Shown: positions 22,037-37,567, counted from the first letter of the stretch. The stretch: DNA of 38,556 bases from Clostridia bacterium (GCA_034117945.1 JAXEOR010000156.1:1-38556); one strand, 5' to 3'. Program-made: numbers and translations. The notes: generated by a model not told the origin, from the sequence alone.

Positions 22037-22719
22037 ATGAAGAAAAAATACTTATCCATAGATGTGTATCAATCCCGCCGGAAGCGGTTTGAATATTCAT
22101 TTCAGGAATTTGATCATATTTATGTTTCCTTCAGCGGCTGGTAGGAATGTGCGCCAATGAATCTCTGCAGCGATACAGCGGATTTGTCAATAAAAAATAT
22201 GGCTATCAGGGTCGGTGCTGGATTTCCAAGCAATATAAAGATGTGTGGTGCGTGTGGCCTTTGTATGACTGGTCGGTCAATGATGTGTGGGTAGCCAATT
22301 ATACCTTTCATTATGATTACAACAAGCTGTATGATATGTATTACAAGGCCGGTCTGAAGCCGGATCAAATGCGGATTGCTTCTTTTTTCAATGATTACTC
22401 TAAGGATTGCTTGAATTTGTACCAGGTGATTGATCCGGCCGTCTGAGCAAAGCTGGTGGAGCGCGGTTGCAAGATTCGTCGCAACGGAATTTCTCAATAT
22501 ACCTTGGATAAAAAGTCCAGAATTGTTTTTCTGAAAAAATCCGATGATACAGACGATATCAAAAGTACCGAGGATATTCCCAGCTGGAAGCGAATGTGCT
22601 TCTGTGTTTTGAAACATGATCATACCTGCCGGTTTATGGGGTTTGGCCTGTCTAGGCAGGAACAAAAGAGATTTGATTTGATCAAACAAAAGTATGAAGA
22701 ATTTTTCAATGAGCAGTAA
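22037..22719 (+). pseudogene. Decayed IbrA-like gene (PAPS-reductase/PP-loop N-terminus plus DUF3440 C-terminus)
   Basis: There are three fragments. Fragment 22037-22144 ends ...DHIYVSFSGW*, cut inside the SFSGGKDS-type PP-loop. Fragment 22147-22446 (frame changed) ends at TGA, where ...DPAV*AKLVERG suggests a lost Trp. Fragment 22456-22719 carries the DUF3440-like IPSWKRMCFCVLKHDHTCRFMGF. Confidence 0.65.
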
Positions 22720-23281
22720 AAGTTATCAAAGTCCGGTGTATCAGGTAATTGCAGTACTCTTTCAAAAGATTGTGACGAATACATACAATCCGAATGTTAC
22801 TGCGTCGCCGGAAATGAAGCTGCTGTATGACAGTATCAAAGAGGATAACTATACCATGTCCATAGTGTGCTACTACAATAAGCAGCAGGATCAGTATGTG
22901 ATTATAGACGGCTTTCACCGTTACCGGGTGGATGAAGGAATCTCCTAATATTTATGAGAGGGAGCATGTATGCTGCCCGTGTCTGTGATTGACAAGCCCT
23001 TGTCCAACCAAATGGCCAGCACCATCCGGCACAATTGAGCCAGAGGATCATATGACGCAGATTTGATGAGTAATATTATCAAGGAGCTGCATGAAATCGG
23101 CCGTTCTGATGCATGAATTTCAAAGCATCTGGAAATGGGTAAGGATGAAATATTAAGGCTAAAGCAAATTACCGGAATGGCCGCCCTGTTCCGTGACGTT
23201 CAGTTCGGCCAGCCTTGGCAGCCGGAGGAGGAAGAAGAGGAGGAAGAAGAGGAGGAAGAGAATTTCAAAACAGCCGAATAA
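22694..23281 (+). pseudogene. Decayed IbrB-like ParB/sulfiredoxin-domain gene with four in-frame stops and no frameshift
   Basis: The ParB-like N-terminus reads NPNVTASPEMKLLYDSIKEDNYTMSIVCYYN...IIDGFHRYRV. The same frame stays interpretable to 23281 (ASTIRHN*ARGSYDADLMSNIIKELHEIGRSDA*ISKHL...poly-Glu tail). The stops are TAA 22946, TGA 22955, TGA 23036 and TGA 23114. Confidence 0.65.
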
Positions 23282-23415: not shown

Positions 23416-23444
23416 TTGACAAAACTCTCTCCGTCTGCTATAAT
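23416..23444 (+). promoter_or_regulatory. Sigma-A promoter of tRNA-Leu
   Basis: TTGACA (23416-23421), a 17-nt spacer, then an extended -10 TGCTATAAT (TATAAT at 23439-23444). It lies about 30 nt upstream of the tRNA. Confidence 0.75.
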
Positions 23445-23476: not shown

Positions 23477-23563
23477 GCGGATATGGCGGAATTGGCAGAC
23501 GCGCATGGTTCAGGTCCATGTGAGAGCAATCTCATGGAGGTTCAAGTCCTCTTATCCGCACCA
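23477..23563 (+). tRNA. tRNA-Leu (anticodon CAG), class II with a long variable arm and encoded CCA
   Basis: Cloverleaf folded by hand. Acceptor GCGGATA/TATCCGC. Anticodon stem CATGG/CCATG with loop TTCAGGT. Variable arm TGAGA-GCAA-TCTCA. T-loop TTCAAGT. 3' ACCA. Confidence 0.9.
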
Positions 23564-23685
23564 CGTCGGAACGGACTTTGCTCCGTTCCGATTTTTCTTT
23601 GTAGAAAAATCAGTCACACGCTCCGTCGTTCCTCCTTTTTCGTGAAAAGTCACGCTCAGTTCGCCTGCTCGTTTGCAAACGCACT
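23564..23685 (+). repeat. Left copy of an imperfect inverted repeat directly 3' of tRNA-Leu
   Basis: It shares an ordered module with the reverse complement of 26170-26292. The module is CGTCGGA, a terminator hairpin, TTTTTCTTTnnAGAAAAA, a 22-nt perfect core TCCTCCTTTTTCGTGAAAAGTC (23630-23651), then TTTGCAAnCGCA. Confidence 0.7.
23566..23596 (+). terminator. Intrinsic terminator of tRNA-Leu
   Basis: Perfect 10-bp stem TCGGAACGGA / TCCGTTCCGA with a 6-nt loop, followed by TTTTT. Confidence 0.85.
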
Positions 23686-23960
23686 CGCGACGGCTCACAA
23701 TCGCTACCAACTTTTCACGATATTGCGCCTTCGGCGCAGCCAAAATCCCCTGTCGCTACTGTGTTTGCGGGCAAGTCCTGTAAGAACACGCGCACCATAC
23801 AGTAGAAATCCGAACCTTGTACCAATCGGTGAAGGGTTCGGATTTTTGTTTCTGTGGATTATTGTATTACGAAAAGACGATCCGGTCTGCATCTTGCGCC
23901 TTACCGGTACGTTTTTGCATTTGCGTTTCTTCTTCTCGTTTAAAGGAATTCAACAAGTCT

Positions 23961-25955
23961 TTAATTGATTCCAAAGGGAGCTTTTTTGAACTTGATACCG
24001 AAAAACGCTTTTGATTCCTCGAGATTCATAACGACCCATTCACGAGACTTTCTGGCCTCCAGGGTTTCAGGCAGCTCTTTGATCAGTCGATCCGCTTCAT
24101 ATGGTGCGCCGGCATTATAGCGAAGCTCGTTACTTCTTTTATCAATCACAAATGACTTTTTGCTTGTCTTCCAAGCGGAGCATACTGTCTTGATTGCATA
24201 TTTTCCGGTAACTTGTTCGTTAAAATAATTGTCCAGCGTCAGAGGGCGGATATATTCCGGTACGTCGGCATTTTCGCGGATCATTGACACAATAATATCC
24301 GAAGAATATTTTAAAATATCCGGAGCACTTTCCATATCATCCGATTTCATTGATTCGATCAGATCAGGAATAATGTCAAACATTCTGCGGAGGTACTCAC
24401 GGTAAAATCCTGTTCCGATTTCTTTTTGCACAAATCTGACCACATTGCTTTTCATTACTTCTGTATTTGTTAACCCTGCTTCCACCCGGCAAATCACCGT
24501 CCGCCTGATGACCTCCGGGGAAACAGCCTTAACGTCTTCGTTTGCACTGATCACAACCGCCGAGTAATTTGTAAGATGATCGGCAATTCCAAAATCATCG
24601 GTTTTGATGGTTTCAATGGCATGCTGATTAAAGCGCGTGTTGACCATATCGTCTACAATAATCGGCGCCCCCTGGACGGTGCGCTTTAAGCCCTCTATAC
24701 TGGAACGGGTAAATTCTTGGGCAGCAATTTTCGGCTTTTGTCCAATCATCATTTTCAGCAAGGTTTCAAGAAAGCTTGTTTTGCCGGCTTTGCTTTGGCC
24801 GTATACCAGCCCGAAAACAGGGTAGGGAAGGCGGTTTTGATTAAAACGCGCCGCCATATCACGCATGATAGCCATAAAGGGCGAACAGAAAAACCAGTTT
24901 GCAAATTCAAAATAGCGATACTGCATCCCGATATAATCACCGTGAAAACGGCTGTATCCGTCCATGTATTTGAGAAACAGCTCTACATCCCTTTTCACTT
25001 CCTCATTTGAGGGATTCAGATCCAGCTTTTCGTCGTTCAAGGTTGCAGTTCCGCTAAAAACGTCCAGTACCAACTGAGGATATTCATTTCGGAGCTCCTT
25101 TGTTTTGATGGCTTCCTCTTGGATATGTTTTTTAATCTTTACAAGCGTATCCGGCATCACTCTGATCTTCCCGGTTTTCTTATCGGGCTTTGGAAGCATC
25201 GGTTCCAGCTTTTCGGCGAGATTACGCGTTTCTAACGTAAACTCAATTTCAGCAGCATTCTCTTTGACAGGTTCAAGCACAATGGCTTTTGTTGATGCAA
25301 TGGTTTTGGAAATAGGCAACTGGTCAAGATTATCGGCCAGATCGGAAAAAAGCAGTGATTTGTGACTGATCTCATCTGTGCTGTTTTCCTTCAGACTATT
25401 GAAAACACTTAAGTACCAGTCATAGGCAGGATCCCCGTCAAGATAACAAATATTTTCTCTCTGGCGGCCTCCAAATGCGTTATAAGACAGATTGGCAGAA
25501 CCCATAATCACTCTTTTTCTGCCGTCTTCCGAGGATAACAGATATATTTTTTCATGGGAAAGCTGCGTTCTTGCAACGTATAAATGCACTTCACCCTGGT
25601 CGATTCTGCCAAGGATTTTGTCTTTTATTTTATTCGGTGCTTTTCTGATTCTTTCAATCAGCTGATTTTGAAATGCCATAATTTCCTGTAACTGATAAGA
25701 CATCACAGCTTCGCAGCCGAAAATGATTTCGCTTTCCTGAAAAAAATCAAGCAGCTTTCCAATAAAGTTTATCCCGGAAGAATAGGTAATTGCTTTTAAG
25801 GATGAAAAGCCCTGGAACAGTTCTTTCCACTCAACCGATTCGGCACCCAAATAGTCCATCTTGACCACGTCAATTTTGCCCGATACATCACCGAGCAGGG
25901 ATGTTTGATCAGTGAAATCATCAAATAATTGCTGCTGTATCATCTCCTGTTTCAT
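23961..25955 (-). CDS. Fusion protein: N-terminal single-HKD PLD-family nuclease domain plus C-terminal P-loop NTPase (664 aa); candidate defence or mobile-element protein
   Basis: I chose ATG 25955 because an AAGGAGA RBS precedes it; the ORF track starts at 26009. The HKD-type motif SHEKIYLLSSEDGRKRVIMGSANLS has H134 and K136 (nt 25548-25556) and GSAN at residues 152-155. Walker A is GQSKAGKT (nt 24777-24800). Walker B is PIIVDD. A VVISAN strand follows. Confidence 0.7.
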   Translation of the reverse strand: MKQEMIQQQLFDDFTDQTSLLGDVSGKIDVVKMDYLGAESVEWKELFQGFSSLKAITYSSGINFIGKLLDFFQESEIIFGCEAVMSYQLQEIMAFQNQLIERIRKAPNKIKDKILGRIDQGEVHLYVARTQLSHEKIYLLSSEDGRKRVIMGSANLSYNAFGGRQRENICYLDGDPAYDWYLSVFNSLKENSTDEISHKSLLFSDLADNLDQLPISKTIASTKAIVLEPVKENAAEIEFTLETRNLAEKLEPMLPKPDKKTGKIRVMPDTLVKIKKHIQEEAIKTKELRNEYPQLVLDVFSGTATLNDEKLDLNPSNEEVKRDVELFLKYMDGYSRFHGDYIGMQYRYFEFANWFFCSPFMAIMRDMAARFNQNRLPYPVFGLVYGQSKAGKTSFLETLLKMMIGQKPKIAAQEFTRSSIEGLKRTVQGAPIIVDDMVNTRFNQHAIETIKTDDFGIADHLTNYSAVVISANEDVKAVSPEVIRRTVICRVEAGLTNTEVMKSNVVRFVQKEIGTGFYREYLRRMFDIIPDLIESMKSDDMESAPDILKYSSDIIVSMIRENADVPEYIRPLTLDNYFNEQVTGKYAIKTVCSAWKTSKKSFVIDKRSNELRYNAGAPYEADRLIKELPETLEARKSREWVVMNLEESKAFFGIKFKKAPFGIN

Positions 25956-26026
25956 AGTGGTCTCCTTGAAAAAATAGTAAAAATATTTTTGGATCTTCCT
26001 TTGAATCAATATTCCAACCTAATTTT

Positions 26027-26055
26027 AGTATAGTATATTTTGGTATCAAAAGCAA
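26027..26055 (-). promoter_or_regulatory. Candidate promoter of the PLD/P-loop gene
   Basis: On the minus strand: TTGCTT (26050-26055), a 17-nt spacer, then TATACT (26027-26032). It lies about 70 nt upstream of the start. Confidence 0.4.
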
Positions 26056-26169
26056 GAACGATTACAGATTTGTTAAGGCGGCAGTGATCCGGCGGGATCA
26101 AAAAGCAGATTTTTTCAAGCTTTAAAAAACCTCTTACTCGCAAAAAGGTGGTAGTGCAGTGAAGGCGTG

Positions 26170-26292
26170 ATGCCTGCGCTTGCAAAGGCATAACCGCAGC
26201 AAACGAGACTTTTCACGAAAAAGGAGGAGCAAGGAAGCGAGCGGATGTTTTTCTGTAAAGAAAAACGGAGCAAAGCGAACTTTGCTCCGACG
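26170..26292 (-). repeat. Right copy of the inverted repeat directly 3' of tRNA-Glu
   Basis: The plus strand at 26207-26228, GACTTTTCACGAAAAAGGAGGA, is the exact reverse complement of 23630-23651. The flanking modules are collinear with the left copy. Confidence 0.7.
26261..26289 (-). terminator. Intrinsic terminator of tRNA-Glu
   Basis: CGGAGCAAAG (26266-26275) / CTTTGCTCCG (26280-26289) stem, with a T-run on the minus strand (26261-26265). Confidence 0.8.
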
Positions 26293-26367
26293 TGGTGACC
26301 CGTGGGGGAATCGAACCCCCGTTATCGCCGTGAAAGGGCGGTGTCTTAACCGCTTGACCAACGGGCC
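26293..26367 (-). tRNA. tRNA-Glu (anticodon UUC), encoded CCA
   Basis: The minus strand reads GGCCCGTTGGTCAAGCGGTTAAGACACCGCCCTTTCACGGCGATAACGGGGGTTCGATTCCCCCACGGGTCACCA. The anticodon loop is CTTTCAC. The anticodon arm is nearly identical to that of E. coli tRNA-Glu. Confidence 0.9.
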
Positions 26368-26674: not shown

Positions 26675-27265
26675 ATGACGGATCAAAACAATAGCGAGAA
26701 AAAAATCACCCGGGAGGAAGCATGGGAGCTGCTCACGGAATTTAATAAAGACCATTTTCATTTAAAGCATGCCTTGACGGTAGAGGGCGTGATGAAATAT
26801 TTTGCAAACGAGCTTGGTTATGGAGAGGAAGCAGACTTTTGGGGCATCGTGGGGCTTTTGCATGATCTGGATTTTGAGCAGTTTCCCCAGCAACACTGCA
26901 TCAAGGAGCAGGAAATCATGCGCAGTCGCCATCGGGAAGAACGGCTGATTCATGCCGTTGCCAGCCATGGTTACGGGCTGACAGTTGACATCAAGCCGGA
27001 GCACGAAATGGAAAAGGTGCTGTATGCGGTAGACGAGCTGACAGGGCTGATCGACGCAGTTGCGGTGATACGGCCCTCCAAAAGCGTTTCCGATCTGGAG
27101 CTGAAATCGGTGAAGAAAAAATATAAAAGCGCCAATTTTGCCGCCGGCTGTTCCAGAGAAGTCATTGAACGGGGAGCCGCTATGCTGGGATGGGGACTGG
27201 ATGATCTGATTTCCAAAACAATTTTGGCAATGAGGAGCTGTGAAAGCGTTTATGAAGCAATTTGA
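26675..27265 (+). CDS. HD-domain (HDIG-like) metal-dependent phosphohydrolase
   Basis: H...HD signature (HLKHALTVEG...LLHDLDFEQ) with later His residues (ASHGYG). Confidence 0.75.
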   Translation: MTDQNNSEKKITREEAWELLTEFNKDHFHLKHALTVEGVMKYFANELGYGEEADFWGIVGLLHDLDFEQFPQQHCIKEQEIMRSRHREERLIHAVASHGYGLTVDIKPEHEMEKVLYAVDELTGLIDAVAVIRPSKSVSDLELKSVKKKYKSANFAAGCSREVIERGAAMLGWGLDDLISKTILAMRSCESVYEAI

Positions 27266-28307
27266 AGCGATGATCAATACCCTCGTCCAAACCCATGATT
27301 TACCGGAGGACGAGCTGAAGGAGCTCCTGGAAACCTCCGCCTCTGACACGCTGCTGTTCTCAGCCGCAGACAAGGTCAGGCGAAGTATATACGGCGACGA
27401 GGTATATCTCCGGGGACTTATCGAGTTTACCAATTACTGCAAAAACAACTGTTATTACTGCGGCATTCGAAGGGACAACAAAGAGGCAGTGCGGTACCGT
27501 CTTGACAAGGAAGAAATTCTCGCCTGCTGCAAGGAGGGCTATGCCCTGGGATTTCGCACCTTTGTGCTGCAGGGCGGAGAGGATCCCTTTTACAACGATC
27601 AGATGATCTGCGAAATTGTTTCTGCCATACGGGAGCAGTTTGCAGACTGCGCCATCACCCTTTCCATCGGAGAAAAAAGCAGAAAAAGCTATCTTGATTA
27701 CTACAACGCAGGCGCAAACCGGTATCTGTTAAGGCATGAAACCGCAGAGGAGGCTCACTACCGCAGACTTCATCCTGACAGTATGAGCCTGAAAAACCGA
27801 AAGCGGTGCTTGTTTGATTTAAAGGAAATTGGCTATCAGGTGGGAAGCGGCTTTATGGTAGGCTCTCCCGATCAGACAACCCAAAATTTAATTGCCGATC
27901 TGCGTTTTTTACAGGAATTAAAGCCGGACATGATCGGGATCGGCCCCTATCTCACCCACCATCAAACCCCCTTTGCAGGTTGCCCTGACGGCAGTCTGGC
28001 TTTGACGCTGCGGATGATTTCCCTAGTCAGACTTATGTTTCCTTATGGGCTGATTCCGGCTACAACAGCCCTGGGAACCATTCATCCCCAGGGGCGGGAG
28101 ATGGGACTGAAGGCCGGCGCCAATGTGGTAATGCCCAATCTTTCGCCCGTAAGAGTACGCAAGCTTTACCAGCTTTATGAAAATAAGATTTGTACCGGCG
28201 AGGAGGCGGCGCAATGCCGGGGGTGCCTGGAGCGCCGGGTGGAGTCGGCGGGCTACCGGGTTGTTACCGCAATCGGTGATGTGAAAAAAGGAGGCGGGAT
28301 CGGATGA
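27240..28307 (+). CDS. hydE: [FeFe]-hydrogenase maturase HydE (radical SAM)
   Basis: LRGLIEFTNYCKNNCYYCGIRRDN contains the CxxxCxxC motif in the HydE-typical context. The size is about 350 aa. The start is uncertain (GTG 27240, ATG 27252 or ATG 27270) because the ORF overlaps the upstream gene. Confidence 0.75.
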   Translation: MKAFMKQFEAMINTLVQTHDLPEDELKELLETSASDTLLFSAADKVRRSIYGDEVYLRGLIEFTNYCKNNCYYCGIRRDNKEAVRYRLDKEEILACCKEGYALGFRTFVLQGGEDPFYNDQMICEIVSAIREQFADCAITLSIGEKSRKSYLDYYNAGANRYLLRHETAEEAHYRRLHPDSMSLKNRKRCLFDLKEIGYQVGSGFMVGSPDQTTQNLIADLRFLQELKPDMIGIGPYLTHHQTPFAGCPDGSLALTLRMISLVRLMFPYGLIPATTALGTIHPQGREMGLKAGANVVMPNLSPVRVRKLYQLYENKICTGEEAAQCRGCLERRVESAGYRVVTAIGDVKKGGGIG

Positions 28308-29377
28308 ATCAAAAGGCTTTGATTGCCATGAGCGGCGGTGTGGATTCCAGCGTGGCCGCATACCTGATTAAGGAGCAGGGTTATGAATGTATGGGCGCAA
28401 CCATGAAGCTGTTTCAAAGCCGGGAGGGATGCGCTCCCCGAGAAAACTCCTGCTGCTCCTTAGCGGATGTGGCAGATGCCAGAAGCGTTGCTTATACTTT
28501 GAACATTCCCTATTATGTGTTCAACTTTACCGATCGGTTTCAAAGGGACGTGATTGACCGGTTTGTAGCCGCTTATGAAACAGGAGCAACCCCCAACCCC
28601 TGTATTGACTGTAACCGGTATCTGAAATTTGAAAAGCTGTTTCAGCGAGCCAAGGAATTGTATTACGACTATGTTGTTACCGGTCATTATGCTCGGATTG
28701 AATGGGACAGGGGCTCCGGCCGGTTTCTGCTGAAAAAGGCCGTTGACGAAACAAAGGATCAAAGCTATGTGCTTTATGCCATGACTCAGGAGCAGCTTGC
28801 CCATACCCTGTTTCCCCTGGGCAGCCTGCGCAAAGCGCAGGTGCGCCAAATTGCCCGGGAGCAGGGCTTTGTGAATGCCAAAAAGCGTGACAGTCAGGAT
28901 ATATGCTTTGTGCAGCAGGGAAGCTATGCCGATTTTATAGAAGACTATACCGGAAAAGTATATCCGCCCGGCAACTTTATTTCTCAGGACGGCACTGTTT
29001 TGGGAACGCACAAAGGCATCATTCACTATACCGTGGGACAGCGCAGGGGGCTGGGCATTTCCTATGAGGAGCCCCTGTATGTGACGGCGGTCAACCCTGC
29101 TGACAACACCGTTACCCTGGGAACAAGCAATGATTTGTATTCCAAAACCCTGACCGCAGGCAATGTGAATCTCATTGGGGCGGAAAGACTGGACAAGCCG
29201 GTTCGTGTCAAAGCGAAGGTGCGCTACCGCCAGCCGGAGCAGCCCGCAACCCTGATCCAAACAGGCGAGGATTCTGTTACGGTCGAGTTTGATCAGCCTC
29301 AAAGAGCGGTTACCAAGGGGCAGGCCGTTGTGTTTTATGAGGGCGATGTGGTTTTGGGGGGCGGAACCATCCAATGA
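28304..29377 (+). CDS. mnmA: tRNA 2-thiouridine(34) synthase MnmA
   Basis: The PP-loop AMSGGVDSSVAA and the conserved Cys (NPCIDCN) are present. The size is 357 aa. Confidence 0.9.
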   Translation: MNQKALIAMSGGVDSSVAAYLIKEQGYECMGATMKLFQSREGCAPRENSCCSLADVADARSVAYTLNIPYYVFNFTDRFQRDVIDRFVAAYETGATPNPCIDCNRYLKFEKLFQRAKELYYDYVVTGHYARIEWDRGSGRFLLKKAVDETKDQSYVLYAMTQEQLAHTLFPLGSLRKAQVRQIAREQGFVNAKKRDSQDICFVQQGSYADFIEDYTGKVYPPGNFISQDGTVLGTHKGIIHYTVGQRRGLGISYEEPLYVTAVNPADNTVTLGTSNDLYSKTLTAGNVNLIGAERLDKPVRVKAKVRYRQPEQPATLIQTGEDSVTVEFDQPQRAVTKGQAVVFYEGDVVLGGGTIQ

Positions 29378-29619
29378 ATGTGGGGAAAGGGCGGCTTTTC
29401 TAACATCGAGCCAGAATGAATTCTGTTTCACATTGGGGGGCTTTGCCCCTCTTTTTTTGTAGGCCAAGCAAAATCCTTTACGAGAACAAAGGAAAACCGT
29501 TGCAATTAACCGAAAACTATAGTATAATAAATACAAATCAATGTGCGGCATCTCTTAGGGAGAGCCCTCTACAAAGAACGGAACAATCAAATGAACCTGC
29601 GGAACAAAGGAGAAAAAAG

Positions 29620-30813
29620 ATGAGTTTATTTCAGCCTGCAAACATTCTGCTTCCCAAAAGCAGTATTTCTTTCAACAAATGGTGCGTGGTAGCCTGCGAC
29701 CAGTATACCTCCCGGCCGGATTACTGGGAAAGGGTGGAGCAGCTGGTGGGAGACAGCCCCAGCACCCTGCGTCTGGTTTATCCGGAGGCCTATCTGTCCC
29801 AGGGAGAGGGCAGAATTGCCGCCATCAACCAAGCCATGGAGCAATATCTGGCCGACGGGGTATTTTGCGAGTATCCCAACAGCCTGATTTATGTGGAACG
29901 CACCCTGTCCGGCGGAAGAATCCGCCGAGGCATTGTGGGGGCGGTTGATTTGGAGGAGTATGATTATCAAAAGGGCTCCAAAAGTAAAATCCGTGCCACC
30001 GAGGGAACCGTTCTGGAGCGCATTCCTCCCCGGGTCAAAATCCGTCAAAATGCTCCCCTGGAGCTGCCTCATGTGATTTTGCTGATCGACGATCCGGCGC
30101 AGGCAATCATAGAAGGAGTTCAACCTGGGAAACTATTATATGAAACGGAGCTGATGGCCGGAGGAGGTCGCCTGACCGGCCGGGAAATCGATCCGGAGGA
30201 AACTGCGGCCTTTTTAGATAGATTTCAGAAGCTGGAGCAGTCCGCCCCTGACGGGCTGGTGCTGGCGGTAGGAGACGGAAACCATTCCTTAGCCTCTGCA
30301 AAGGCCTGCTGGGAGGCTATTAAGCCGTCCCTTTCTCCTGAGGAGCGGGAAACCCATCCCGCCCGGTTCTGCCTGGCGGAGGTGGAAAATATTCACGATC
30401 CGGCACAGGAATTTGAACCCATTCATCGGGTTGTGTTCGGAACTCAGCCGGAGCAGCTGCTGGAAGGCTTTTTGTCGCTGCCTCAGGTGTCACAAGCACC
30501 GGGAGGACAACAAATCACCTGCCTGTATGCGGGCAAGGAGATCACAGTTTTTCTGAATAATGTTACCCTGGCGGTGGGTCTGCTGCAAAAATATCTGGAC
30601 GAGCAGGGGGCTCAGGTGGATTATATCCACGGAGAGGATGAGGTTCGGCGGCTTTCCTCCCAGCCCGGAAATCTGGGATTTTTACTGCCCAAGCCGGGAA
30701 AATCGGAGCTGTTTCGTACCGTTATTCAGGACGGGACTCTTCCCCGGAAAACCTTTTCCATGGGAGAAGCCAACGAAAAGCGGTATTACATGGAGGCAAA
30801 AAAAATCAGATAA
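29620..30813 (+). CDS. DUF1015-family protein
   Basis: I chose ATG 29620 because an AAAGGAG RBS precedes it; the ORF track starts at 29416, inside a terminator/promoter region. The N-terminus MSLFQPANILLPK...VVACDQYTS is typical of DUF1015. Confidence 0.7.
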   Translation: MSLFQPANILLPKSSISFNKWCVVACDQYTSRPDYWERVEQLVGDSPSTLRLVYPEAYLSQGEGRIAAINQAMEQYLADGVFCEYPNSLIYVERTLSGGRIRRGIVGAVDLEEYDYQKGSKSKIRATEGTVLERIPPRVKIRQNAPLELPHVILLIDDPAQAIIEGVQPGKLLYETELMAGGGRLTGREIDPEETAAFLDRFQKLEQSAPDGLVLAVGDGNHSLASAKACWEAIKPSLSPEERETHPARFCLAEVENIHDPAQEFEPIHRVVFGTQPEQLLEGFLSLPQVSQAPGGQQITCLYAGKEITVFLNNVTLAVGLLQKYLDEQGAQVDYIHGEDEVRRLSSQPGNLGFLLPKPGKSELFRTVIQDGTLPRKTFSMGEANEKRYYMEAKKIR

Positions 30814-30875
30814 GGCCAAGGCTGCTTGGCTGCAACATTTTATAAAGATACGAACAGAAAAGAGGAGGAAGTGAG

Positions 30876-33209
30876 TTGAAAAAGCGATTTGGGTTATTGG
30901 GCTTGGCTTTTTTGTTGGTGTTTAGCTGCTTTTGCAGTGCCGGTGCAGAGGAAGGAGAGAAATATGCTACCCGTGGCAGGGTGCTGGAAATGATTTTAAC
31001 CGCTGCGGACGCATATTATGAAAATCTGCAGCCCTCCGATATTATGAAGGGGGACGGAGACGGCCAGTTAAGAGAGAACGATCCGGTAATCCGGGTGGAG
31101 GCCATGGCTATGCTCAGCCGTGCCTTTCCGGATCTTCCTGCTGCGTCGGAGTATCAATATTCCCTGGGCAGCTTTGGCATTACCTTTACCGATCTCCCTC
31201 AATGGGCGGAGGCAGATCTTTCTAACCTGACCCGGGCGGGCATTGTGGCGGGCTATCCAGACGGCCGGCTGGGGGTTGAGGATTATGTGACCGAAGAGCA
31301 AATGACGCTGATGATCCGCCGGATCTGGGCATATTTGGGCAGTAATTTGAAGGACGATTTTTACAGCTTCTGCAACAAGCCCTGGCTGGACACTGCCACC
31401 CTTTCTGCCAGCCAGCTGGAGGCGGGAACCTTTCAGCAGGCAGACAGTCAGGTCAGTCAGCGGCTGCAGGAATATGTGGAAGAGGTGGCCTCCAAGCAGT
31501 GGCGCACGGATACACCGGAGCAAAGAATAAAAAATTTCTATCTTTCCGCCTTGGACACGGAGGACGGCAATCCGCAAGGACTGTTTGCCCTGCGGACCTT
31601 TCTGATTGGCTACGATCAGGCAGAGTCTCTTCAGGAGCTGATGGATCTCCATGCCAAGATCAGCAAATTGATGGGAGACGGGGGGATTTTAGGCCTGACG
31701 GTTGATGTGGATCTCCTGACAGGAGAACGGTATGTGCCCTATGTGACGGGGGCTGCGGGAATTTTGGAAAAGTCCTATTTTACCACTGAGGACGAGCAGG
31801 CAAAGGAGGCCTATCTGAATTACGTTTCCGATCTGCTGATTCTGGGGGGCGAGGAAAAGCTTACAGCCAAAAAGCATGCCATGCAGCTGTATGAAATGGA
31901 GAAGGAAATCGCCCTGGCATCTTTGGATCCCAAGGACTATTATACTTTTGAAAAAACCTATCACAGATACCAGCCCTTAGCCCTGCGGCAGCTGTTTCGG
32001 GATTTCTCGCCGGAGCCCCTGCTGGAGGATATGGACGGGGTGGGATTTTTCGTTATCACAGATTTGGGCAGAGTGCAAAAAACCATTGAATACTGCACAG
32101 AGGACAATCTGGAGCTTTTGAAAACCTATATGAAATTCTGGCTGCTGGAGGGCTGCTCCTCTCTGCTGGGAGAAGAATTTTATCAGCCGGGAGCGGAGTT
32201 GATGAATTCACTGTATGGGGTTGAGCTGACCTATGACAGCAAGCAGATGTCAGCCCAGCTGGTGCAGGGATATCTGGGAGAATATCTGGAGGAGTTTTAC
32301 GCAAAGGAATACTGCTCTCCTCAAATTAAAGAGGACGTGACCGATCTGGTTCTCCAGCTGAAGGAGGCCTTCCGAGTCAGGCTGGAGCAGGCGGACTGGC
32401 TTGGGGAAGAAACCAGAAAGCAGGCTATAGAAAAGCTGAACAGCATGATTCTGAACATTGCTTATTCAGAGGAGTTTTACGATTCCTACGAGGGAGAATA
32501 TTTTGAAAATGATTTGCTGACAAACGCACTGATTGTCCGCTCCTATTTGTATGACCTGAGCTGTTTTGCAATCGGGCAGGAGGCAAGCCGTGACCGTTGG
32601 ATCATGCCTTGCTACACCGTGAATGCGGCTTATGACCCTTCCGCAAATTCCATTACCATTCCTGCCGGCATTTTGCAGCAGCCCTTTTATGACCCCTATG
32701 GGGAGGAGGAAGAAAATCTGGGAGGAATCGGTACGATTATTGCCCACGAAATTACCCATGCTTTTGATGACAGCGGCGCCCAATATGACAAAACAGGCAG
32801 GTATGATAATTGGTGGACCAAGGAAGATCTTCAGGCGTTTCAACAAAAATGCACCCAGGTGGAGGAATTTTATGACGGATGGGAAATCAGCAATTACGCC
32901 AAGTGTGACGGAGCCTTAACCCTGGGAGAAAATGTGGCGGATCTGGGGGGCATGGCCTGCACCCTGGAGGTGATGAAAACCCTGGAGGATCCCGATTATG
33001 CCTTGTTTTTTGAAAGCTATGCAGGGCTTTGGAGGGATTATGTCAGAAGGGAAATGGTCAGCTATTATGCGGACAATGACGTGCATGCACCTGCCAGTCT
33101 TCGGGTGAACAGAGTGGTTGTGAATTTCCAGGAATTTTACGATACCTATGGGATAGAGCCGGGAGACGGCATGTATTTTCCTCCCAAGGAGCGAGTTAGG
33201 GTTTGGTAA
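30876..33209 (+). CDS. Secreted M13-family zinc metallopeptidase (PepO-like) with an N-terminal SLH-like module
   Basis: There is a signal peptide. The SLH-like segment is FTDLPQWAEADLSNLTRAGIVAGYPDGRLG. The zinc-site motifs are HEITHAF (HExxH) and GENVADLGG. The TTG start is preceded by GAGGAGGAAG. Confidence 0.85.
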   Translation: MKKRFGLLGLAFLLVFSCFCSAGAEEGEKYATRGRVLEMILTAADAYYENLQPSDIMKGDGDGQLRENDPVIRVEAMAMLSRAFPDLPAASEYQYSLGSFGITFTDLPQWAEADLSNLTRAGIVAGYPDGRLGVEDYVTEEQMTLMIRRIWAYLGSNLKDDFYSFCNKPWLDTATLSASQLEAGTFQQADSQVSQRLQEYVEEVASKQWRTDTPEQRIKNFYLSALDTEDGNPQGLFALRTFLIGYDQAESLQELMDLHAKISKLMGDGGILGLTVDVDLLTGERYVPYVTGAAGILEKSYFTTEDEQAKEAYLNYVSDLLILGGEEKLTAKKHAMQLYEMEKEIALASLDPKDYYTFEKTYHRYQPLALRQLFRDFSPEPLLEDMDGVGFFVITDLGRVQKTIEYCTEDNLELLKTYMKFWLLEGCSSLLGEEFYQPGAELMNSLYGVELTYDSKQMSAQLVQGYLGEYLEEFYAKEYCSPQIKEDVTDLVLQLKEAFRVRLEQADWLGEETRKQAIEKLNSMILNIAYSEEFYDSYEGEYFENDLLTNALIVRSYLYDLSCFAIGQEASRDRWIMPCYTVNAAYDPSANSITIPAGILQQPFYDPYGEEEENLGGIGTIIAHEITHAFDDSGAQYDKTGRYDNWWTKEDLQAFQQKCTQVEEFYDGWEISNYAKCDGALTLGENVADLGGMACTLEVMKTLEDPDYALFFESYAGLWRDYVRREMVSYYADNDVHAPASLRVNRVVVNFQEFYDTYGIEPGDGMYFPPKERVRVW

Positions 33210-33295: not shown

Positions 33296-34027
33296 TTATT
33301 TGCAGTGACTGTGGTAGTCAAATGAGGCAGAATCGTCAAAATCCTCTCTTTGGGGCGGGAAAAATTCATCAAAGGGGAATTGGATTCTCTCAAACAGATC
33401 GCAGGGATTATCCTCTGTTGCGGAGATACATTCCTTCTGAGGAATACAGAAATCAAAGGACGGGATCAACAGCTGGGTCTTTCTTTCCAGCTTAACGATG
33501 GTGAACAGTCCTAAAGAAACCTGAACTCTCTTGTGCTCGCCGGAAGAAACCAGCTCGTCATTAAAGCATCCGCAAATAAACTGAGGAATGCTGCAGGGAT
33601 CTTCACAGCAGGAGCATTTTTCAACCAATCTTGCTCCCAGGCAGATGGGATCAACAGCCTCCACAACAGCCTTGGGAAGGTTGGTTTTGCCGGTCAGCTG
33701 GGTGTCAGATTCGTTGGGACGATACTTTGAGGTGAAGATCTTGGCGTTTCCTTCCGAGCCGAACAGAATCACCTTTTTGTCAAAGGTGGCCAGACCCTCC
33801 GCCTGAACGGGCGTTCCCACGCCGGTAAAGACATCCAGGGTAATCCGGAAGAAGTATTTGATATCAACCGTGAAAAAGCCCCGGTTGAAGGGCACAGCCT
33901 CCACATCGCTGTAAATCCAGATAATTTCAGCTTTGCGGCATTTTACATTGATTGCCCGGTTAATCAGCTCCTGATCCGGCCGGGTGAATAATACATTTAG
34001 ATTCTCGAGACAGTCTTTTTCATAGGA
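33296..34027 (-). pseudogene. 5'-truncated Cys-rich hypothetical CDS, apparently interrupted by the recombinase-bearing element
   Basis: The ORF track begins at GTG 33904. The same frame stays open and protein-like for 41 more codons (SYEKDCLENLNVLFTRPDQELINRAINVKCRKAEIIWIYSDVEAVPF...) up to 34027. No ATG, GTG or TTG start occurs there. It ends 17 nt from the recombinase stop, where composition drops to AT-rich. Confidence 0.55.
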
Positions 34028-34043
34028 TTACGCATGATAGAAA

Positions 34044-35537
34044 TTATTTATGTAGCTTGAAATGAATGTCTAAAAAGAAATCGTTGTTCCATTCTCCCTT
34101 TTTTCTTTCATAACTGGCATATGAAACAATTGATTTCAGCATGATGTTTTTTTCCTCTGGATTGCTGCCCCAATAATTTTTTAATAGTTTCTTTGCGTTT
34201 GGAATAAAATCCTCGTTTGTCAGCTTCTGATTTAATTCGTTTAAAATTTCTTTTTGTTCCTCGATTGATTTTTCGATGGCTTCTATTTCTCTTTCAATCG
34301 TTTCTTTTCTTTCCATGAATGTCGGAATATCATAAACCCCCTGCTCCAAAAGATCGTGCAGCTTATTCTTTTGGCCGATTGTGACAGTGAGTTTCTTTTC
34401 TAATTTTTCAATTGCATTTTCCGTTGATTCTGTTTGGCCTTTGTCTATTCCAAAGTCAACAAGTCCGCTTTCGCATTTTTTAACGAAATTGTCTATGTCT
34501 CGATAGAACTGTTTTTCCACCTGTTCAACGGTAGCGGATTTCGTGCACCCCTTTGTTGTGCAAATAACTCTCTGCCAATTGTGCTTCTTTGAATATTGCC
34601 TTGTCATCAAAGAGCCGCAAACGCCACAGTACAGCAATCCGCAAAACGGATTCTTGACTGTTCCGTTATTGCTTGGTGGATGAGAATGAGAACGTCTTAT
34701 TTTATCCGCTTTCCAAAAAATATCTTCATCTACAATCGCCGGATGCTTTCCCTTTACAACGATCCAATCTTTTTCCGGCATGATTTGCCTCCTGTTTTTT
34801 TCATCAGGAGATTTTTTTCGGATGTGTTTGTTCCTGTTCCATTGAATCAATCCGATGTATGTTTTATTTTGCAAAATAAACCGAACTGTATTTCTTGAAA
34901 AACCGGTTCCTTTTCTTCCCGACAGACCCATCTGGTTCAAGTGGTTTGCAATGGAGTAGGTACCCATGTTTTGGTTGACGTACATATCAAAAATCATCCG
35001 AACAACTTCCGCCTGCTCCGGGTGTGGTGACAGAGTGGGAATTTTTCCGTCCCACGCTCTAATGTATCCATATGGAGGCTCTGCGATATAGCCGCCCTGT
35101 TCAATTGTTCTTTTCCGGCCTTCTCCCATTCTTCTCTTAATTGCCTTTAATTCATTTCTGGCAATGATCCCTTTGAATTCAAAAAACATTTCGTCCTTTT
35201 CATTGCCCGGATTGTAAACTTCCCTTGGAGTAATAATTTTTGTATCAGTGTACCGGAATTTATTCATCATCAAACCTTGCTCCTGCATATCGCCACGGCC
35301 GAGACGGTCAATGTCCATGCACAAAACAGCGTCGTAATTCTCCAGCTCAGACAATAATTTCAGCATTTCCGGGCGGTTGAAAATACTCTCTCCGCTGACA
35401 ACCTCCTCATATATTTTCGTAACAGTAAGATTGTTTTTGGCCGCAAATTCAAGAAGTGTTTCCTTATGCTTTGCCAATGTGTCCTCTGCGTTTTGTTCAT
35501 CAGCCCTTGACTTTCTTAAATATATCGCCGTTTTCAA
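34044..35537 (-). CDS. Large serine recombinase (resolvase/invertase N-domain, recombinase domain, zinc ribbon, coiled coil)
   Basis: The N-terminus MKTAIYLRKSRADE carries the catalytic Ser context. The zinc ribbon is CGLLYCGVCGS...CTTKGC. The C-terminus is coiled-coil. The TTG start is preceded by GGTGA. Confidence 0.9.
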   Translation of the reverse strand: MKTAIYLRKSRADEQNAEDTLAKHKETLLEFAAKNNLTVTKIYEEVVSGESIFNRPEMLKLLSELENYDAVLCMDIDRLGRGDMQEQGLMMNKFRYTDTKIITPREVYNPGNEKDEMFFEFKGIIARNELKAIKRRMGEGRKRTIEQGGYIAEPPYGYIRAWDGKIPTLSPHPEQAEVVRMIFDMYVNQNMGTYSIANHLNQMGLSGRKGTGFSRNTVRFILQNKTYIGLIQWNRNKHIRKKSPDEKNRRQIMPEKDWIVVKGKHPAIVDEDIFWKADKIRRSHSHPPSNNGTVKNPFCGLLYCGVCGSLMTRQYSKKHNWQRVICTTKGCTKSATVEQVEKQFYRDIDNFVKKCESGLVDFGIDKGQTESTENAIEKLEKKLTVTIGQKNKLHDLLEQGVYDIPTFMERKETIEREIEAIEKSIEEQKEILNELNQKLTNEDFIPNAKKLLKNYWGSNPEEKNIMLKSIVSYASYERKKGEWNNDFFLDIHFKLHK

Positions 35538-35613
35538 TGGATCACCGCCAATTTTTTGAAGAATCGTGTCTATAATATCTGTTTACATTATTTTAAATAT
35601 TTTATAGATTTAT

Positions 35614-35811
35614 TTATCTGAATCTATAATCAATTCCACTTTGCTTTAAGATAGCGTTTGCAGTATGCCTTGATTTGATTTTTGTATCAACAGTTACATG
35701 ACGAAGAGTGATTGGGCTGTACCAAATATCATGATCACCTTTTCCGTGTCTTATAAAGGTACACTTATTTTGACTGAGAATTTCACGGACTTTCTTTTCA
35801 TATTCAGCCAT
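35614..35811 (-). CDS. hicA: HicA-family mRNA interferase toxin
   Basis: The 65-aa protein contains ...FIRHGKGDHDIWYSP...KSRHTANAILKQSGI, typical of HicA/YcfA. It overlaps the hicB stop by 1 nt. Confidence 0.8.
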   Translation of the reverse strand: MAEYEKKVREILSQNKCTFIRHGKGDHDIWYSPITLRHVTVDTKIKSRHTANAILKQSGIDYRFR

Positions 35812-36029
35812 TACAGAGCAATCCTTTCATGTCTTTCTGATACAAAAATTAAAGTAGAAGATGTTTTTTGTGATTGGTTCAGTTCTAGCAATTCCGGCAC
35901 GGCAAATCTGACACGCTCCAGAAGGGCATCAAATGAACCCGCTTCCAGTACAAGACCCGGAACATCATCACTTGTTGCAATCCAAACATTTGCTTCCGGA
36001 TCCCATGATATATGAATGATATAGTCCAT
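35811..36029 (-). CDS. hicB: HicB-like antitoxin (DUF1902-type)
   Basis: MDYIIHISWDPEANVWIATSDDVPGLVLEAGSFDALLERV matches the DUF1902/HicB N-terminal fold pattern. Confidence 0.7.
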   Translation of the reverse strand: MDYIIHISWDPEANVWIATSDDVPGLVLEAGSFDALLERVRFAVPELLELNQSQKTSSTLIFVSERHERIAL

Positions 36030-36050
36030 AACAATATACCTCCTGTGTTT

Positions 36051-36079
36051 ATTATATGGTAAATATATATTTTTATCAA
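36051..36079 (-). promoter_or_regulatory. Sigma-A promoter of hicBA
   Basis: On the minus strand: TTGATA (36074-36079), a 17-nt spacer, then TATAAT (36051-36056). Confidence 0.6.
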
Positions 36080-36118
36080 CTATTTATTCTACCTTCACGA
36101 TAACCTTTCCAATGCATT

Positions 36119-36550
36119 CTATTTATTTACAACCTTACAATTTGTTATTTGAATAGAATTATCATATGTATTATAATACAATGAAGCATTAACGTTTTGA
36201 TAATTTCCTTCAAATGAAAAATTTATGTATTCCCAATAGCCTGAGAATTGTCCGCTGCATATTGTTCCGTGCATTCCCATTTTTTCTAAATCGTTTCTTG
36301 TAATACCTCCATAAAAACCGTTTGATATCTTACAAAATCTAGATACGGTGATCGACCTTATCCTTTTTGTATTTAGATTTCTATCGATATAAGGATAAAA
36401 AAACACACAAGGCACTCTATCGTCCGTATATTTTATACCTTCTCCTCCTCGATCATATCCTGTATATTCATAATCTCCTCCGAAAAAATACTCAATCAGA
36501 TTTATTGGTTGACCTATAAAATCTATCATTGTGTAATCAGTAATAAGCAC
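36119..36550 (-). CDS. Hypothetical protein (143 aa), Tyr/Gly/Asn-rich
   Basis: Intact ORF downstream of the stalk-domain gene. No family recognised. Confidence 0.45.
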   Translation of the reverse strand: MLITDYTMIDFIGQPINLIEYFFGGDYEYTGYDRGGEGIKYTDDRVPCVFFYPYIDRNLNTKRIRSITVSRFCKISNGFYGGITRNDLEKMGMHGTICSGQFSGYWEYINFSFEGNYQNVNASLYYNTYDNSIQITNCKVVNK

Positions 36551-36555
36551 CCGGT

Positions 36556-36957
36556 TTAAATCAGAACTCCAAAAACATTATTATCGAAAGCCTCAGCAAT
36601 TGCACGAACCGGAACGAAAGTTCTATCATTGATTTTTATTATTTCTGAATCCAATTGAACTCTTGTATCGTTTGTATAAATGAAATCATCGCCTATTTTA
36701 AAAGAAACAACTGTTTTTTCGTCAATCGCTTTTACAGATTGGTTTTCTTCATCCCATTCTACTGTTGCTCCTATGGTTTCAAAAATGGTTCTCATTGGAA
36801 CCATAACTCGTTCATTAATCATTCTAGGAGGAACATCAAACCACAGCATTTCTCCATTGTACACAACAGAAATATCCTCTGCTTTTACAAGTATTGCACC
36901 AACAAAGCAAGATATAATAAGTAAAAAAATAAAAAATAATTTTTTCATAAAATCCAC
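36556..36957 (-). CDS. Secreted copper-amine-oxidase N-terminal (stalk) domain protein
   Basis: There is a signal peptide (KKLFFIFLLIISCFVGAILVKA). The repeat pattern ...ERVMVPMRTIFETIGATVEWDEENQSV...NDRTFVPVRAIAEAF is typical of the CuAO N-terminal-like domain. Confidence 0.7.
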   Translation of the reverse strand: MDFMKKLFFIFLLIISCFVGAILVKAEDISVVYNGEMLWFDVPPRMINERVMVPMRTIFETIGATVEWDEENQSVKAIDEKTVVSFKIGDDFIYTNDTRVQLDSEIIKINDRTFVPVRAIAEAFDNNVFGVLI

Positions 36958-36967
36958 CCCAAATACA

Positions 36968-37567
36968 TTAAAATTTCGCCCGTAATTCCACGACCTTTCC
37001 CAATATAATGACAGGGAGCTCTTCTATTTCGTTGTTTGTATATAACATTACTTCATAATTCTGATTGAGAGGAACAAGCATGACTCCATCAGGGCTCTTT
37101 TTAATTTTTTTAATAGTAGCTTCGTTTCCATCGATCAAAACAACGGCAATATCACCGCTATCAACATCAGATTGTTTTCTAACAATAACAACATCCCCTT
37201 CTGAAAATTTCGGCTCCATACTGTTGCCTTGTATTTACAATGCAAAATGCTCTCCTTGCGAATCCATCTTTTGTGATATTTCTTCATAGTCCAATATTTC
37301 TTCCACAGCTTCAATTGGAATTCCGGCGATAACTTTTCCCAGGACTGGAATTTTAACACCTTTTCCAGTTGACTTGGTATCTTCATTTCCTAATATGTAA
37401 TCTACAGATACATCAAAAAAATTTGCTAATTTTATTAGATTTTCTTTTCCTGGATCGCTGTCTCCTCTCTCGTACTTTACATATGTTGTTCTGTCTACAC
37501 CTAATACAGCTGCTACATCCTTTTGGTACAAACCTTTTGATTCCCTTAATTTTCTTAGACGTTCCAT
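36968..37567 (-). pseudogene. XRE-HTH / S24 (LexA-like) phage repressor interrupted by one in-frame TAA
   Basis: 37235-37567 encodes the HTH (LRESKGLYQKDVAAVLGVDRTTYVKYERG) plus a linker. The minus strand across the break reads GEHFAL-TAA-IQGNSMEPKFSEGDVV, so the stop (37235-37237) lies 5 codons before the Ser of the G-x-S-M-E-P nucleophile motif. 36968-37219 is the rest of the S24 domain in the same frame. Confidence 0.75.

Follow-up and report, generated by a model that had tools for sequence, protein, structure and literature searches.

A phospholipase D (PLD) nuclease with a single HKD motif builds one active site from two copies, and nucleases of the BfiI type proceed through a covalent phospho-histidine intermediate. 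In NgoAVII and CglI, DNA cleavage needs ATP hydrolysis by a partner protein. The motor classes known to drive restriction nucleases are superfamily 2 (SF2) helicases, found in type I and type III enzymes, SauUSI and CglI, and the McrB-type GTPases. Candidate single-gene defence systems now turn up often. BfiI-like N-terminal PLD domains joined to varied C-terminal modules, including the helicase of SauUSI, make up single-gene anti-phage nucleases (PMC12191111), and the END nucleases are single-gene anti-phage systems that both DefenseFinder and PADLOC miss (PMC12191111). Here we analyse a stretch of 38,556 nucleotides from a Clostridia bacterium (GCA_034117945.1, JAXEOR010000156.1:1-38556; hereafter the window), in which the interval between two tRNA genes, positions 23,564 to 26,292, carries a single gene on the minus strand.

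We propose, with a confidence slightly above even, that this gene encodes a self-contained, ATP-dependent, restriction-like defence nuclease, horizontally acquired, in which a superfamily 3 (SF3)-type motor replaces the SF2 motor. Restriction enzymes of the PLD class driven by nucleoside triphosphates (NTPs) are already known; an SF3/Cch-type motor in that role would be new. We found no published description of a fusion between a PLD nuclease and an SF3-type ATPase, and an SF3/DUF927-type partner is not listed among the PLD fusions in PMC12191111.

The nuclease and ATPase halves of the protein

The coding sequence, its predicted domains and the codons of the conserved residues are as follows.

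23961-25955, minus strand: coding sequence of the PLD nuclease / SF3-like AAA+ ATPase fusion, 664 residues, stop codon 23961-23963 (open reading frame list, homolog lengths)
25356-25829, minus strand: predicted PLD nuclease domain of BfiI/NgoAVII type, residues ~43-200 (Pfam, Foldseek, conservation)
25548-25556, minus strand: codons of conserved nuclease residues H134-x-K136
25491-25493, minus strand: codon of conserved nuclease residue N155
25455-25457, minus strand: codon of conserved nuclease residue E167
24846-25355, minus strand: predicted helical and small beta middle region, residues 201-370 (AlphaFold2 secondary structure; aligns with the N-terminal part of Cch)
24471-24845, minus strand: predicted AAA+/SF3-like ATPase core, residues 371-495 (conservation, Cch profile match, Foldseek)
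24777-24800, minus strand: Walker A codons (G386..GK392T)
24648-24665, minus strand: Walker B codons (P431..D435 D436)
24540-24542, minus strand: codon of putative sensor-1 residue N472
24501-24503, minus strand: codon of putative arginine finger R485
23964-24470, minus strand: predicted C-terminal helical bundle and small alpha/beta (winged-helix-like) domain, residues 496-664 (AlphaFold2, predicted local-distance difference test (pLDDT) >90)

The sole long open reading frame (ORF) between the tRNA genes spans 23961-26009 on the minus strand. Initiation at the ATG at 25955 yields 664 residues, a start that is backed by homologs of 661-665 residues aligning over 100% of the query, and the one credible gene proposed for this interval in the first-pass annotation is thereby upheld.

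Profile matches and the predicted fold identify the N-terminus as a PLD nuclease domain of the restriction-enzyme type with a single HKD motif. Two Pfam families match residues 98-193 above their cutoffs, RE_NgoFVII (PF09565; E = 1.4e-9, 37.9 bits against a cutoff of 23.8) and PLDc_2 (PF13091; 29.3 bits against a cutoff of 27), and Foldseek places the N-terminal domain on R.NgoAVII (4rct; E = 5.7e-6, root mean square deviation 4.5 over 172 columns), SauUSI (7clg; E = 1.7e-4) and BfiI (2c1l; E = 6e-4), in agreement with the single-HKD motif that had been recognized in the first pass. In an alignment of 77 diverse homologs, reaching down to 25% identity, K136 and N155 are invariant (77/77 each), and H134, S153 and E167 are each kept in 76 of 77. 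The spacing of H, K, N (+21) and E (+33) is presumably that of the catalytic residues of BfiI. At position 141, which the Asp of a canonical HKD motif would occupy, the family holds Lys, Ser, Glu or Thr. The Asp-to-Ser change reported for the window copy is thus correct in that Asp is absent at this position, but it is part of a family-wide variation and not peculiar to this copy, so the 'missing' Asp is no defect of the protein.

Residues 201-664 form a putative Cch/DUF927-like, SF3-type AAA+ helicase module, as suggested by the motifs and by the predicted structure. Walker A comprises G386..G391-K392-T393, Walker B comprises P431-IIV-D435-D436, and the VVISAN strand ends in N472. Within the same alignment, G391, K392, N472 and R485 are found in 77/77 homologs and K451 in 74/77; position 435 is acidic in 72/77 (Asp in 65, Glu in 7) and position 436 is Asp or Glu in all 77. 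From their positions in the model, N472 would act as sensor-1 (motif C) and R485 as an arginine finger. As judged from the alignment, both catalytic sets, that of the nuclease and that of the ATPase, are under strong purifying conservation.

The AlphaFold2 model of the full-length protein has a pLDDT of 90.5 and a predicted TM-score (pTM) of 0.83, and residues 201-664 alone reach a pLDDT of 92.5. For these residues, Foldseek returns Cch (5dgk) at E ~1e-5 and probability 1.0, aligned over the whole Cch chain in 545 columns, with a TM-score of 0.31-0.34; the family profile searched against the Protein Data Bank (PDB) likewise finds SCCmec Cch (5dgk; E = 9e-4), with a weak second stretch onto Cch residues 403-501. 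Further Foldseek matches are B19V NS1, the LTag proteins of JCV and SV40, MPXV E5 and AAV2 Rep40 (E from 5e-4 to 8e-3, TM-scores 0.23-0.38), together with ASFV PrimPol, NrS-1, the SaPI5 primase-helicase and PriRep1, and a viral structure library adds DUF927 proteins and primase-helicases to these matches. Classical AAA proteins (spastin, Vps4) match the ATPase at scores like those of NS1, LTag, E5 and Rep40. These structural matches and the conservation of Walker A, Walker B and VVISAN agree with the SF3/D5/VirE-type P-loop NTPase read from the sequence in the first pass; the linker (200-370) and the last ~170 residues, which had then seemed to match nothing, fall inside the alignment of residues 201-664 with the full Cch chain. 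Residues 496-664 are a candidate DNA-recognition module.

The Pfam models DUF927, D5 and VirE give no match to the query at E<=1, and the only ATPase match is AAA_24 (E = 0.01). Because the TM-scores are low and the Pfam DUF927 model is silent, we use the name 'Cch/SF3-like' for the module rather than assign it to DUF927. Helicase activity of a DUF927 domain is cited in PMC7693054 as having been demonstrated (Mir-Sanchis 2016). A single-sequence phmmer search of the PDB was discarded, as it gave only a spurious match to RecA.

Distribution and genomic neighbourhoods of the family

Precomputed matches to Pfam family PF27394, 'Aq_aa27', are recorded for a protein that shares 100% identity with the query and for every one of the 120 listed homologs. 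An uncharacterised ORF on the Aquifex plasmid ece1 gave the family its name, and databases list its members as 'restriction endonuclease PLD domain-containing protein' (NCBI), 'NgoFVII family restriction endonuclease' or 'phospholipase D family protein'. PHROGs yields no usable assignment of the query and NCBIfam no match; the best matches in PADLOC-DB v2.0.0 lie at noise level (ZacB, E = 7e-4, by the PLD motif only; mad8, E = 8e-3; DrmC, E = 0.035). The idea of an undescribed system therefore survives in one respect, that no named defence family claims the protein, but the family itself has already been catalogued by Pfam and named by NCBI.

More than 1871 relatives, nearly all of ~665 residues, are found among 5.8 billion proteins; an exhaustive search of 50%-identity representatives gives 982 clusters at a threshold of E<=1e-3. 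At E<=1e-30 there are 294 clusters, which keep the full-length architecture, and this architecture is retained to ~27% identity. Among contigs drawn from one genome per species, 69 loci carry relatives at 57-81% identity. These are mostly from Clostridia (Oscillospiraceae, Ruminococcaceae, Lachnospiraceae and Christensenellales), with isolates such as Gemmiger formicilis, Lawsonibacter hominis and Agathobaculum butyriciproducens among them, and relatives outside these groups occur in Kiritimatiellia, Lentisphaerae, Alistipes, Chitinispirillia and Erysipelotrichaceae. More distant relatives (21-28% identity) reside on 14 large plasmids of 43-540 kb, in Acetobacter, Komagataeibacter, Arcobacter, Athalassotoga, Thermus, Haloferax and Natrarchaeobaculum.

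Each genome examined has the gene at a different insertion site. None of 43 long homolog loci has the gene flanked by tRNAs, and neither the gene nor the tRNA pair is present in any of 80 loci that share the right-flank gene of the window (<=85% identity); since these related loci lack both, no precise empty site can be defined. No record of the exact flank protein of the window was found elsewhere. Together, atypical GC content, patchy spread across phyla, presence on plasmids and varying insertion sites show that the gene was horizontally acquired and that the family is mobile.

One representative departs from the common architecture. In P0206 (743 residues), an SPFH/Band-7 domain (E = 1e-21) replaces the PLD domain upstream of the Aq_aa27 C-terminal half, which is 36% identical to residues 279-658 of the query; this protein may reflect either a true exchange of the effector or a fusion introduced by gene calling.

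The family resides in defence and mobile-element islands. Among 122 immediate neighbours, PADLOC identifies six SauUSI-like type IV methyl-directed enzymes (mREase_IV, E down to 1e-186), BrxL (E = 0), a type IIG enzyme (1e-184), PDC-S41, PDC-S04 and PDC-S01, as well as pAgo, SIR2-Aga, CARF-HEPN, a type I restriction endonuclease and PbeA. In Pfam terms, six of these neighbours carry PLDc_2 with RE_NgoFVII and five carry ResIII/DEAD/Helicase_C, in keeping with a SauUSI-like architecture. The same PADLOC search of 122 control genes from housekeeping loci gives only the generic matches E1-E2, mad3 and mad8, and the defence enrichment that the first pass had suggested looking for around homologs is accordingly seen. 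Three findings on which the first-pass proposal could have failed thus came out in its favour: the protein is assigned to no named family of defence or housekeeping enzymes, the gene is not universal at this locus, and its motifs are conserved among homologs.

No universal partner emerges from the clustered neighbour ORFs of 70 loci. Subsets of these loci share an SF2 helicase or PLD-helicase, a DUF2075/Schlafen-type helicase, an AraC-type regulator, AlbA_2, vWA and macro-domain proteins, and a 105-residue protein immediately downstream that looks MazG-like by eye. A gene that acts alone, as had been supposed, is what the window contains; several genomes hold, by contrast, a recurrent island with a SauUSI-like enzyme. 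This larger island runs from a SauUSI-like PLD-SF2 helicase (~1050 residues), with or without a NUDIX-like protein, to the PLD-SF3 gene, and continues with the 105-residue MazG-like protein 5-14 bp downstream, an SF2 helicase (~750 residues) and, in some cases, a DUF2075/Schlafen-type helicase (loci L026, L027, L033 and L051, from Gemmiger formicilis, Lawsonibacter hominis and Ruminococcaceae AM07-15; also L002, L020 and L023). The MazG and NUDIX assignments in this island were made by eye only.

Two alleles illustrate the mobile-element side. The widespread allele P0074 lies ~4.5 kb from a type I HsdR gene, in an element with AbiH, AbiEii, a relaxase, NikA, ParB_N and a serine recombinase. 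Allele P0012 has Fic and AAA_14/DUF4143 genes and a DDE transposase as neighbours. Among its contigs L070-L077, which share one species-level context, the AAA_14/DUF4143 gene is found between the Fic-like gene and the PLD-SF3 gene in four and is absent from four, and many P0012 contigs end 130-180 bp beyond the gene, beside the DDE transposase; the site looks like a variable hotspot. On plasmids, the gene occurs with toxin-antitoxin modules and a recombinase, or adjoins a helicase/methyltransferase cluster; the Arcobacter plasmid has its own Rep, a DnaB-like helicase and ParAB directly beside it.

A tblastn search of 50,697 phage genomes (INPHARED) gave no match. In IMG/VR, single-sequence patterns turned up no close relative, and a profile scan detected 51 contigs with relatives, mostly of one allele. 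This allele, at ~35% identity, occurs on ~45 gut-derived contigs of 35-346 kb (set L169-L219; for instance L173, 7791-9956), flanked by SPFH/flotillin and vWA genes on one side and by a Mor-type regulator and a phage-like SF2 helicase on the other. In L173, the homolog has a separate SPFH/flotillin gene ~4.7 kb upstream. The flanking genes of one IMG/VR locus have no phage homologs except the helicase, which shows weak DNA similarity to phage helicases.

The islet, its tRNA genes and their surroundings

The features that bound the gene and may control it are these.

23416-23444, plus strand: sigma-70-type promoter TTGACA-17-TATAAT with upstream TG, perfect consensus (promoter scan)
23477-23563, plus strand: tRNA-Leu(CAG), left boundary of the islet (ARAGORN; Rfam tRNA, 52 bits)
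23559-23735, plus strand: tRNA-Leu trailer, with an intrinsic terminator hairpin at 23565-23592 and a conserved block; 22-mer TCCTCCTTTTTCGTGAAAAGTC at 23630-23651
25961-25967, minus strand: Shine-Dalgarno sequence AAGGAGA, 5 nt upstream of the ATG (read from the sequence)
26022-26055, minus strand: promoter-like region with two overlapping candidate sites (sequence and promoter scan)
26120-26297, minus strand: tRNA-Glu trailer, with a terminator hairpin at 26266-26289 and a conserved block; the same 22-mer at 26207-26228
26293-26367, minus strand: tRNA-Glu(UUC), right boundary of the islet (ARAGORN; Rfam tRNA, 62 bits)

The ribosome-binding site ascribed to the gene is in place. The promoter proposed with it, TTGCTT-17-TATACT, is present at 26027-26055 on the minus strand, where the scan calls the overlapping TTGATA-16-TAAAAT (26022-26049); promoter-like sites around the gene are nevertheless not above chance (7 found against 4.9 +/- 2.3 expected in shuffled sequence). 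The gene has a GC content of 42.7% and a GC content at third codon positions (GC3) of 0.46, compared with 49-52% and 0.55-0.59 in the flanking genes. The AT-richness first noticed in the islet is therefore real, but the low-GC tract is broader than the islet, extending from ~21.7 kb to 27.0 kb and taking in decayed fragments upstream of tRNA-Leu.

The window contains exactly two tRNA genes, mutually convergent, on which ARAGORN and Rfam are concordant. A perfect sigma-70 consensus promoter lies 33 nt 5' of tRNA-Leu. The ~175 nt 3' of tRNA-Leu and of tRNA-Glu are mutually homologous (79% identity) and have in common the exact 22-mer given above, for which zero matches are expected by chance. 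Each trailer opens with its own terminator hairpin; the two stems are wholly different in sequence, and both pair. Because the two tRNAs converge, the trailers resemble inverted repeats around the gene. The possibility that they are the ends of a mobile unit was considered and rejected: they start at the tRNA 3' ends, hold the terminator of each tRNA and are absent elsewhere, with no copy in 168 other fetched loci or in IMG/VR and no match to an Rfam family. We read them as genome-specific tRNA trailers, not transposon ends; the pair may be a genome-specific repeat linked to tRNA genes.

The suggestion that the tRNA-flanked islet is an integration module did not hold. The ORF list contains no integrase between the two tRNAs, and no direct repeat of a tRNA 3' end bounds the insert, the sole long repeats being the inverted tRNA trailers; the two hallmarks of a tRNA-integrated genomic island, an integrase and tRNA 3'-end direct repeats, are thus both missing.

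The genes on either side are housekeeping genes, namely the beta and alpha subunits of oxaloacetate decarboxylase and a YpsA/SLOG protein on the left, and an 85%-conserved protein of 196 residues, a radical-SAM enzyme, MnmA, a DUF1015 protein and an M13 peptidase on the right. No methyltransferase, integrase or helicase partner is found among the flank genes of the window. Upstream of tRNA-Leu, at 22037-23281, lies a decayed PAPS-reductase/DUF3440 (IbrA-like) gene (E = 1.6e-30 with fragments joined), whose PP-loop is broken ('SFSGW*'), and after it comes what may be a ParB-like (IbrB-like) fragment (E = 0.058), with a poly-Glu run at its end. This gene pair carries several stops and frameshifts and looks like a relic of foreign DNA that the region took in earlier. 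A large serine recombinase (Resolvase, Recombinase and Zn_ribbon_recom; 34044-35537, minus strand) sits inside a patch of 30-43% GC at 34000-37500; it is the recombinase nearest the islet, with housekeeping genes (26675-33209) between, and the patch is probably the edge of a separate integrated element.

Proposed function and comparison with known systems

In the mechanism we propose, the ATPase would assemble into a ring like its structural relatives, with ATP sites between subunits and R485 supplied in trans. The ring would load onto DNA and translocate along it or remodel it, and its action would pair the N-terminal PLD domains, since one HKD motif is half an active site. The paired domains would then cut invading phage or plasmid DNA without a metal ion, and self would be told from non-self by the C-terminal domain or by a preference of the motor for loading at DNA ends, at forks or on modified DNA. 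Functionally, the protein would follow the logic of SauUSI or of CglI/NgoAVII, with an SF3 ring motor instead of an SF2 helicase.

Several points weigh against this proposal. Hexamer formation, translocation and PLD dimerisation are predicted by analogy. With no PADLOC match above noise, the defence function that we infer for the family comes from gene context only, and the contrast between neighbours and control genes, clear as it is, is qualitative, consisting of family counts with no statistic. The structural relatives of the ATPase match it at low TM-scores (0.3-0.38), and every close one is a replicative helicase of viruses or mobile elements, none of them a defence motor. The relatives on 51 IMG/VR contigs imply that some copies may belong to prophage-like elements.

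The AAA+ module could alternatively be an NTP-gated switch and not a motor, recognising a phage protein or a DNA structure as the cue of infection, oligomerising and activating the PLD nuclease, with indiscriminate DNA degradation as the outcome, in an abortive-infection logic like that of Avs/STAND or Lamassu-type systems. We regard this as unlikely. The order of effector, NTPase and small C-terminal domain is indeed modular, the SPFH/Band-7 N-terminus that P0206 has in place of the PLD domain is reminiscent of effector swapping, the gene stands alone without a methyltransferase, and Abi and toxin-antitoxin genes are close by in homolog loci. However, the ATPase fold matches ring translocases (Cch, SF3) and not STAND NTPases, the conserved Asn, the trans-acting Arg and K451 (where a B'-like motif would lie) typify SF3 helicases that translocate on DNA, and the swap is confined to one representative that may itself be a gene-call fusion. 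It is unlikely, too, that the protein serves the replication or processing of a mobile element, as a Rep-like initiator/helicase with a PLD nickase replacing the HUH nuclease or primase, which would make the window copy the relic of a degraded element. Its nearest structural relatives do belong to mobile elements and viruses (Cch, the SaPI5 primase-helicase, PriRep1, NS1/Rep40, LTag, E5), the family takes its name from a plasmid ORF, members are carried by plasmids and IMG/VR contigs and adjoin relaxases and recombinases, the window itself has decayed genes of mobile type just upstream, and the phospho-histidine intermediate of BfiI-type PLD nucleases could in principle allow nicking and rejoining. 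Yet the carrier plasmids are large, that of Arcobacter encoding replication and partition proteins of its own next to the gene; the phage genomes searched contain no match, and the proteins that flank the gene in one IMG/VR locus, apart from a helicase, lack phage homologs; the 70 loci show no integrase, origin-like repeats or conserved replication partner; the gene is often chromosomal, among restriction-modification and type IV enzymes; and in the window it is intact while its neighbours have decayed.

Very unlikely, in our estimate, is a related idea, that the protein is a counterpart of viral and plasmid Reps without their HUH domain, in which PLD nick-and-rejoin chemistry and an SF3/Cch ring helicase initiate or process the replication or transfer of an unrecognised class of mobile element; if so, the pairing of nuclease and SF3 helicase known from parvovirus and CRESS-virus Reps would have been invented anew on a different nuclease fold. 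A housekeeping helicase-nuclease of host DNA repair or recombination has the smallest chance of all and is largely refuted. The flanking genes are housekeeping genes and the ORF is intact with a ribosome-binding site, but the gene is missing from all 80 related loci that share the flank gene, its position differs in every genome, its GC content is atypical for the window, and its patchy distribution crosses phyla.

If the gene does encode a restriction-like defence nuclease, a third class of motor, an SF3/Cch-type AAA+ ring, would drive a restriction nuclease by NTP hydrolysis, and a helicase lineage otherwise known only from the replication of viruses and mobile elements would have been recruited for immunity. 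It would also fill an annotation gap in gut microbiome defence, as the family is large, extends over bacteria and plasmids of archaea, is common in gut Clostridia and is invisible to PADLOC v2. The predicted enzyme, a compact single-chain, probably metal-independent ATP-dependent nuclease, is an easy experimental target, and the catalytic residues for mutation are now defined (H134, K136, N155, E167, K392, D435/D436, N472 and R485).

Each of the known systems shares some of these traits. Like McrBC, the protein would couple an AAA+ ring NTPase motor to a nuclease and restrict without a methyltransferase; McrB, however, is a GTPase of another AAA+ clade, McrC is a separate PD-(D/E)xK protein, and no sequence or fold match between McrBC and the query was found. 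The END nucleases have in common with it an N-terminal PLD domain with an HxK motif and a modular logic, but their C-terminal module is an inactive EndoIII/OGG-like sensor without an NTPase (PMC12191111). Cch and the SF3 helicases, at low TM-scores, appear to resemble it in the predicted ATPase core, in the motif order Walker A, Walker B, Asn, Arg and, for Cch, in the layout of the whole chain; their N-termini are origin-binding domains, HUH nucleases or primases that serve replication, whereas that of the query is a predicted restriction-type PLD domain.

CglI/NgoAVII and BfiI provide the best structural matches to the nuclease domain (4rct, 2c1l) and belong with it to the RE_NgoFVII Pfam family. 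These enzymes differ in having a B3-like DNA-binding domain, which CglI and NgoAVII carry with the PLD domain in their R protein, and an adjacent methyltransferase, and the ATPase of CglI and NgoAVII, the N protein, is a separate one of SF2 type; the query has no methyltransferase in the window flanks and no B3-like domain, and its ATPase is fused and of another class. SauUSI, which works as a dimer, differs in its motor, an SF2 helicase, where the query has an SF3/Cch-like AAA+ module expected to form a ring; the query shows no ResIII, DEAD, Helicase_C or DUF3427 domain in Pfam and no match to PADLOC mREase_IV. SauUSI and the query are alike in placing an N-terminal BfiI-like PLD nuclease, an NTP-driven DNA motor and a C-terminal recognition region (the latter two predicted in the query) in one chain, both are single-gene and without a methyltransferase, and SauUSI-like genes adjoin members of this family in at least six genomes.

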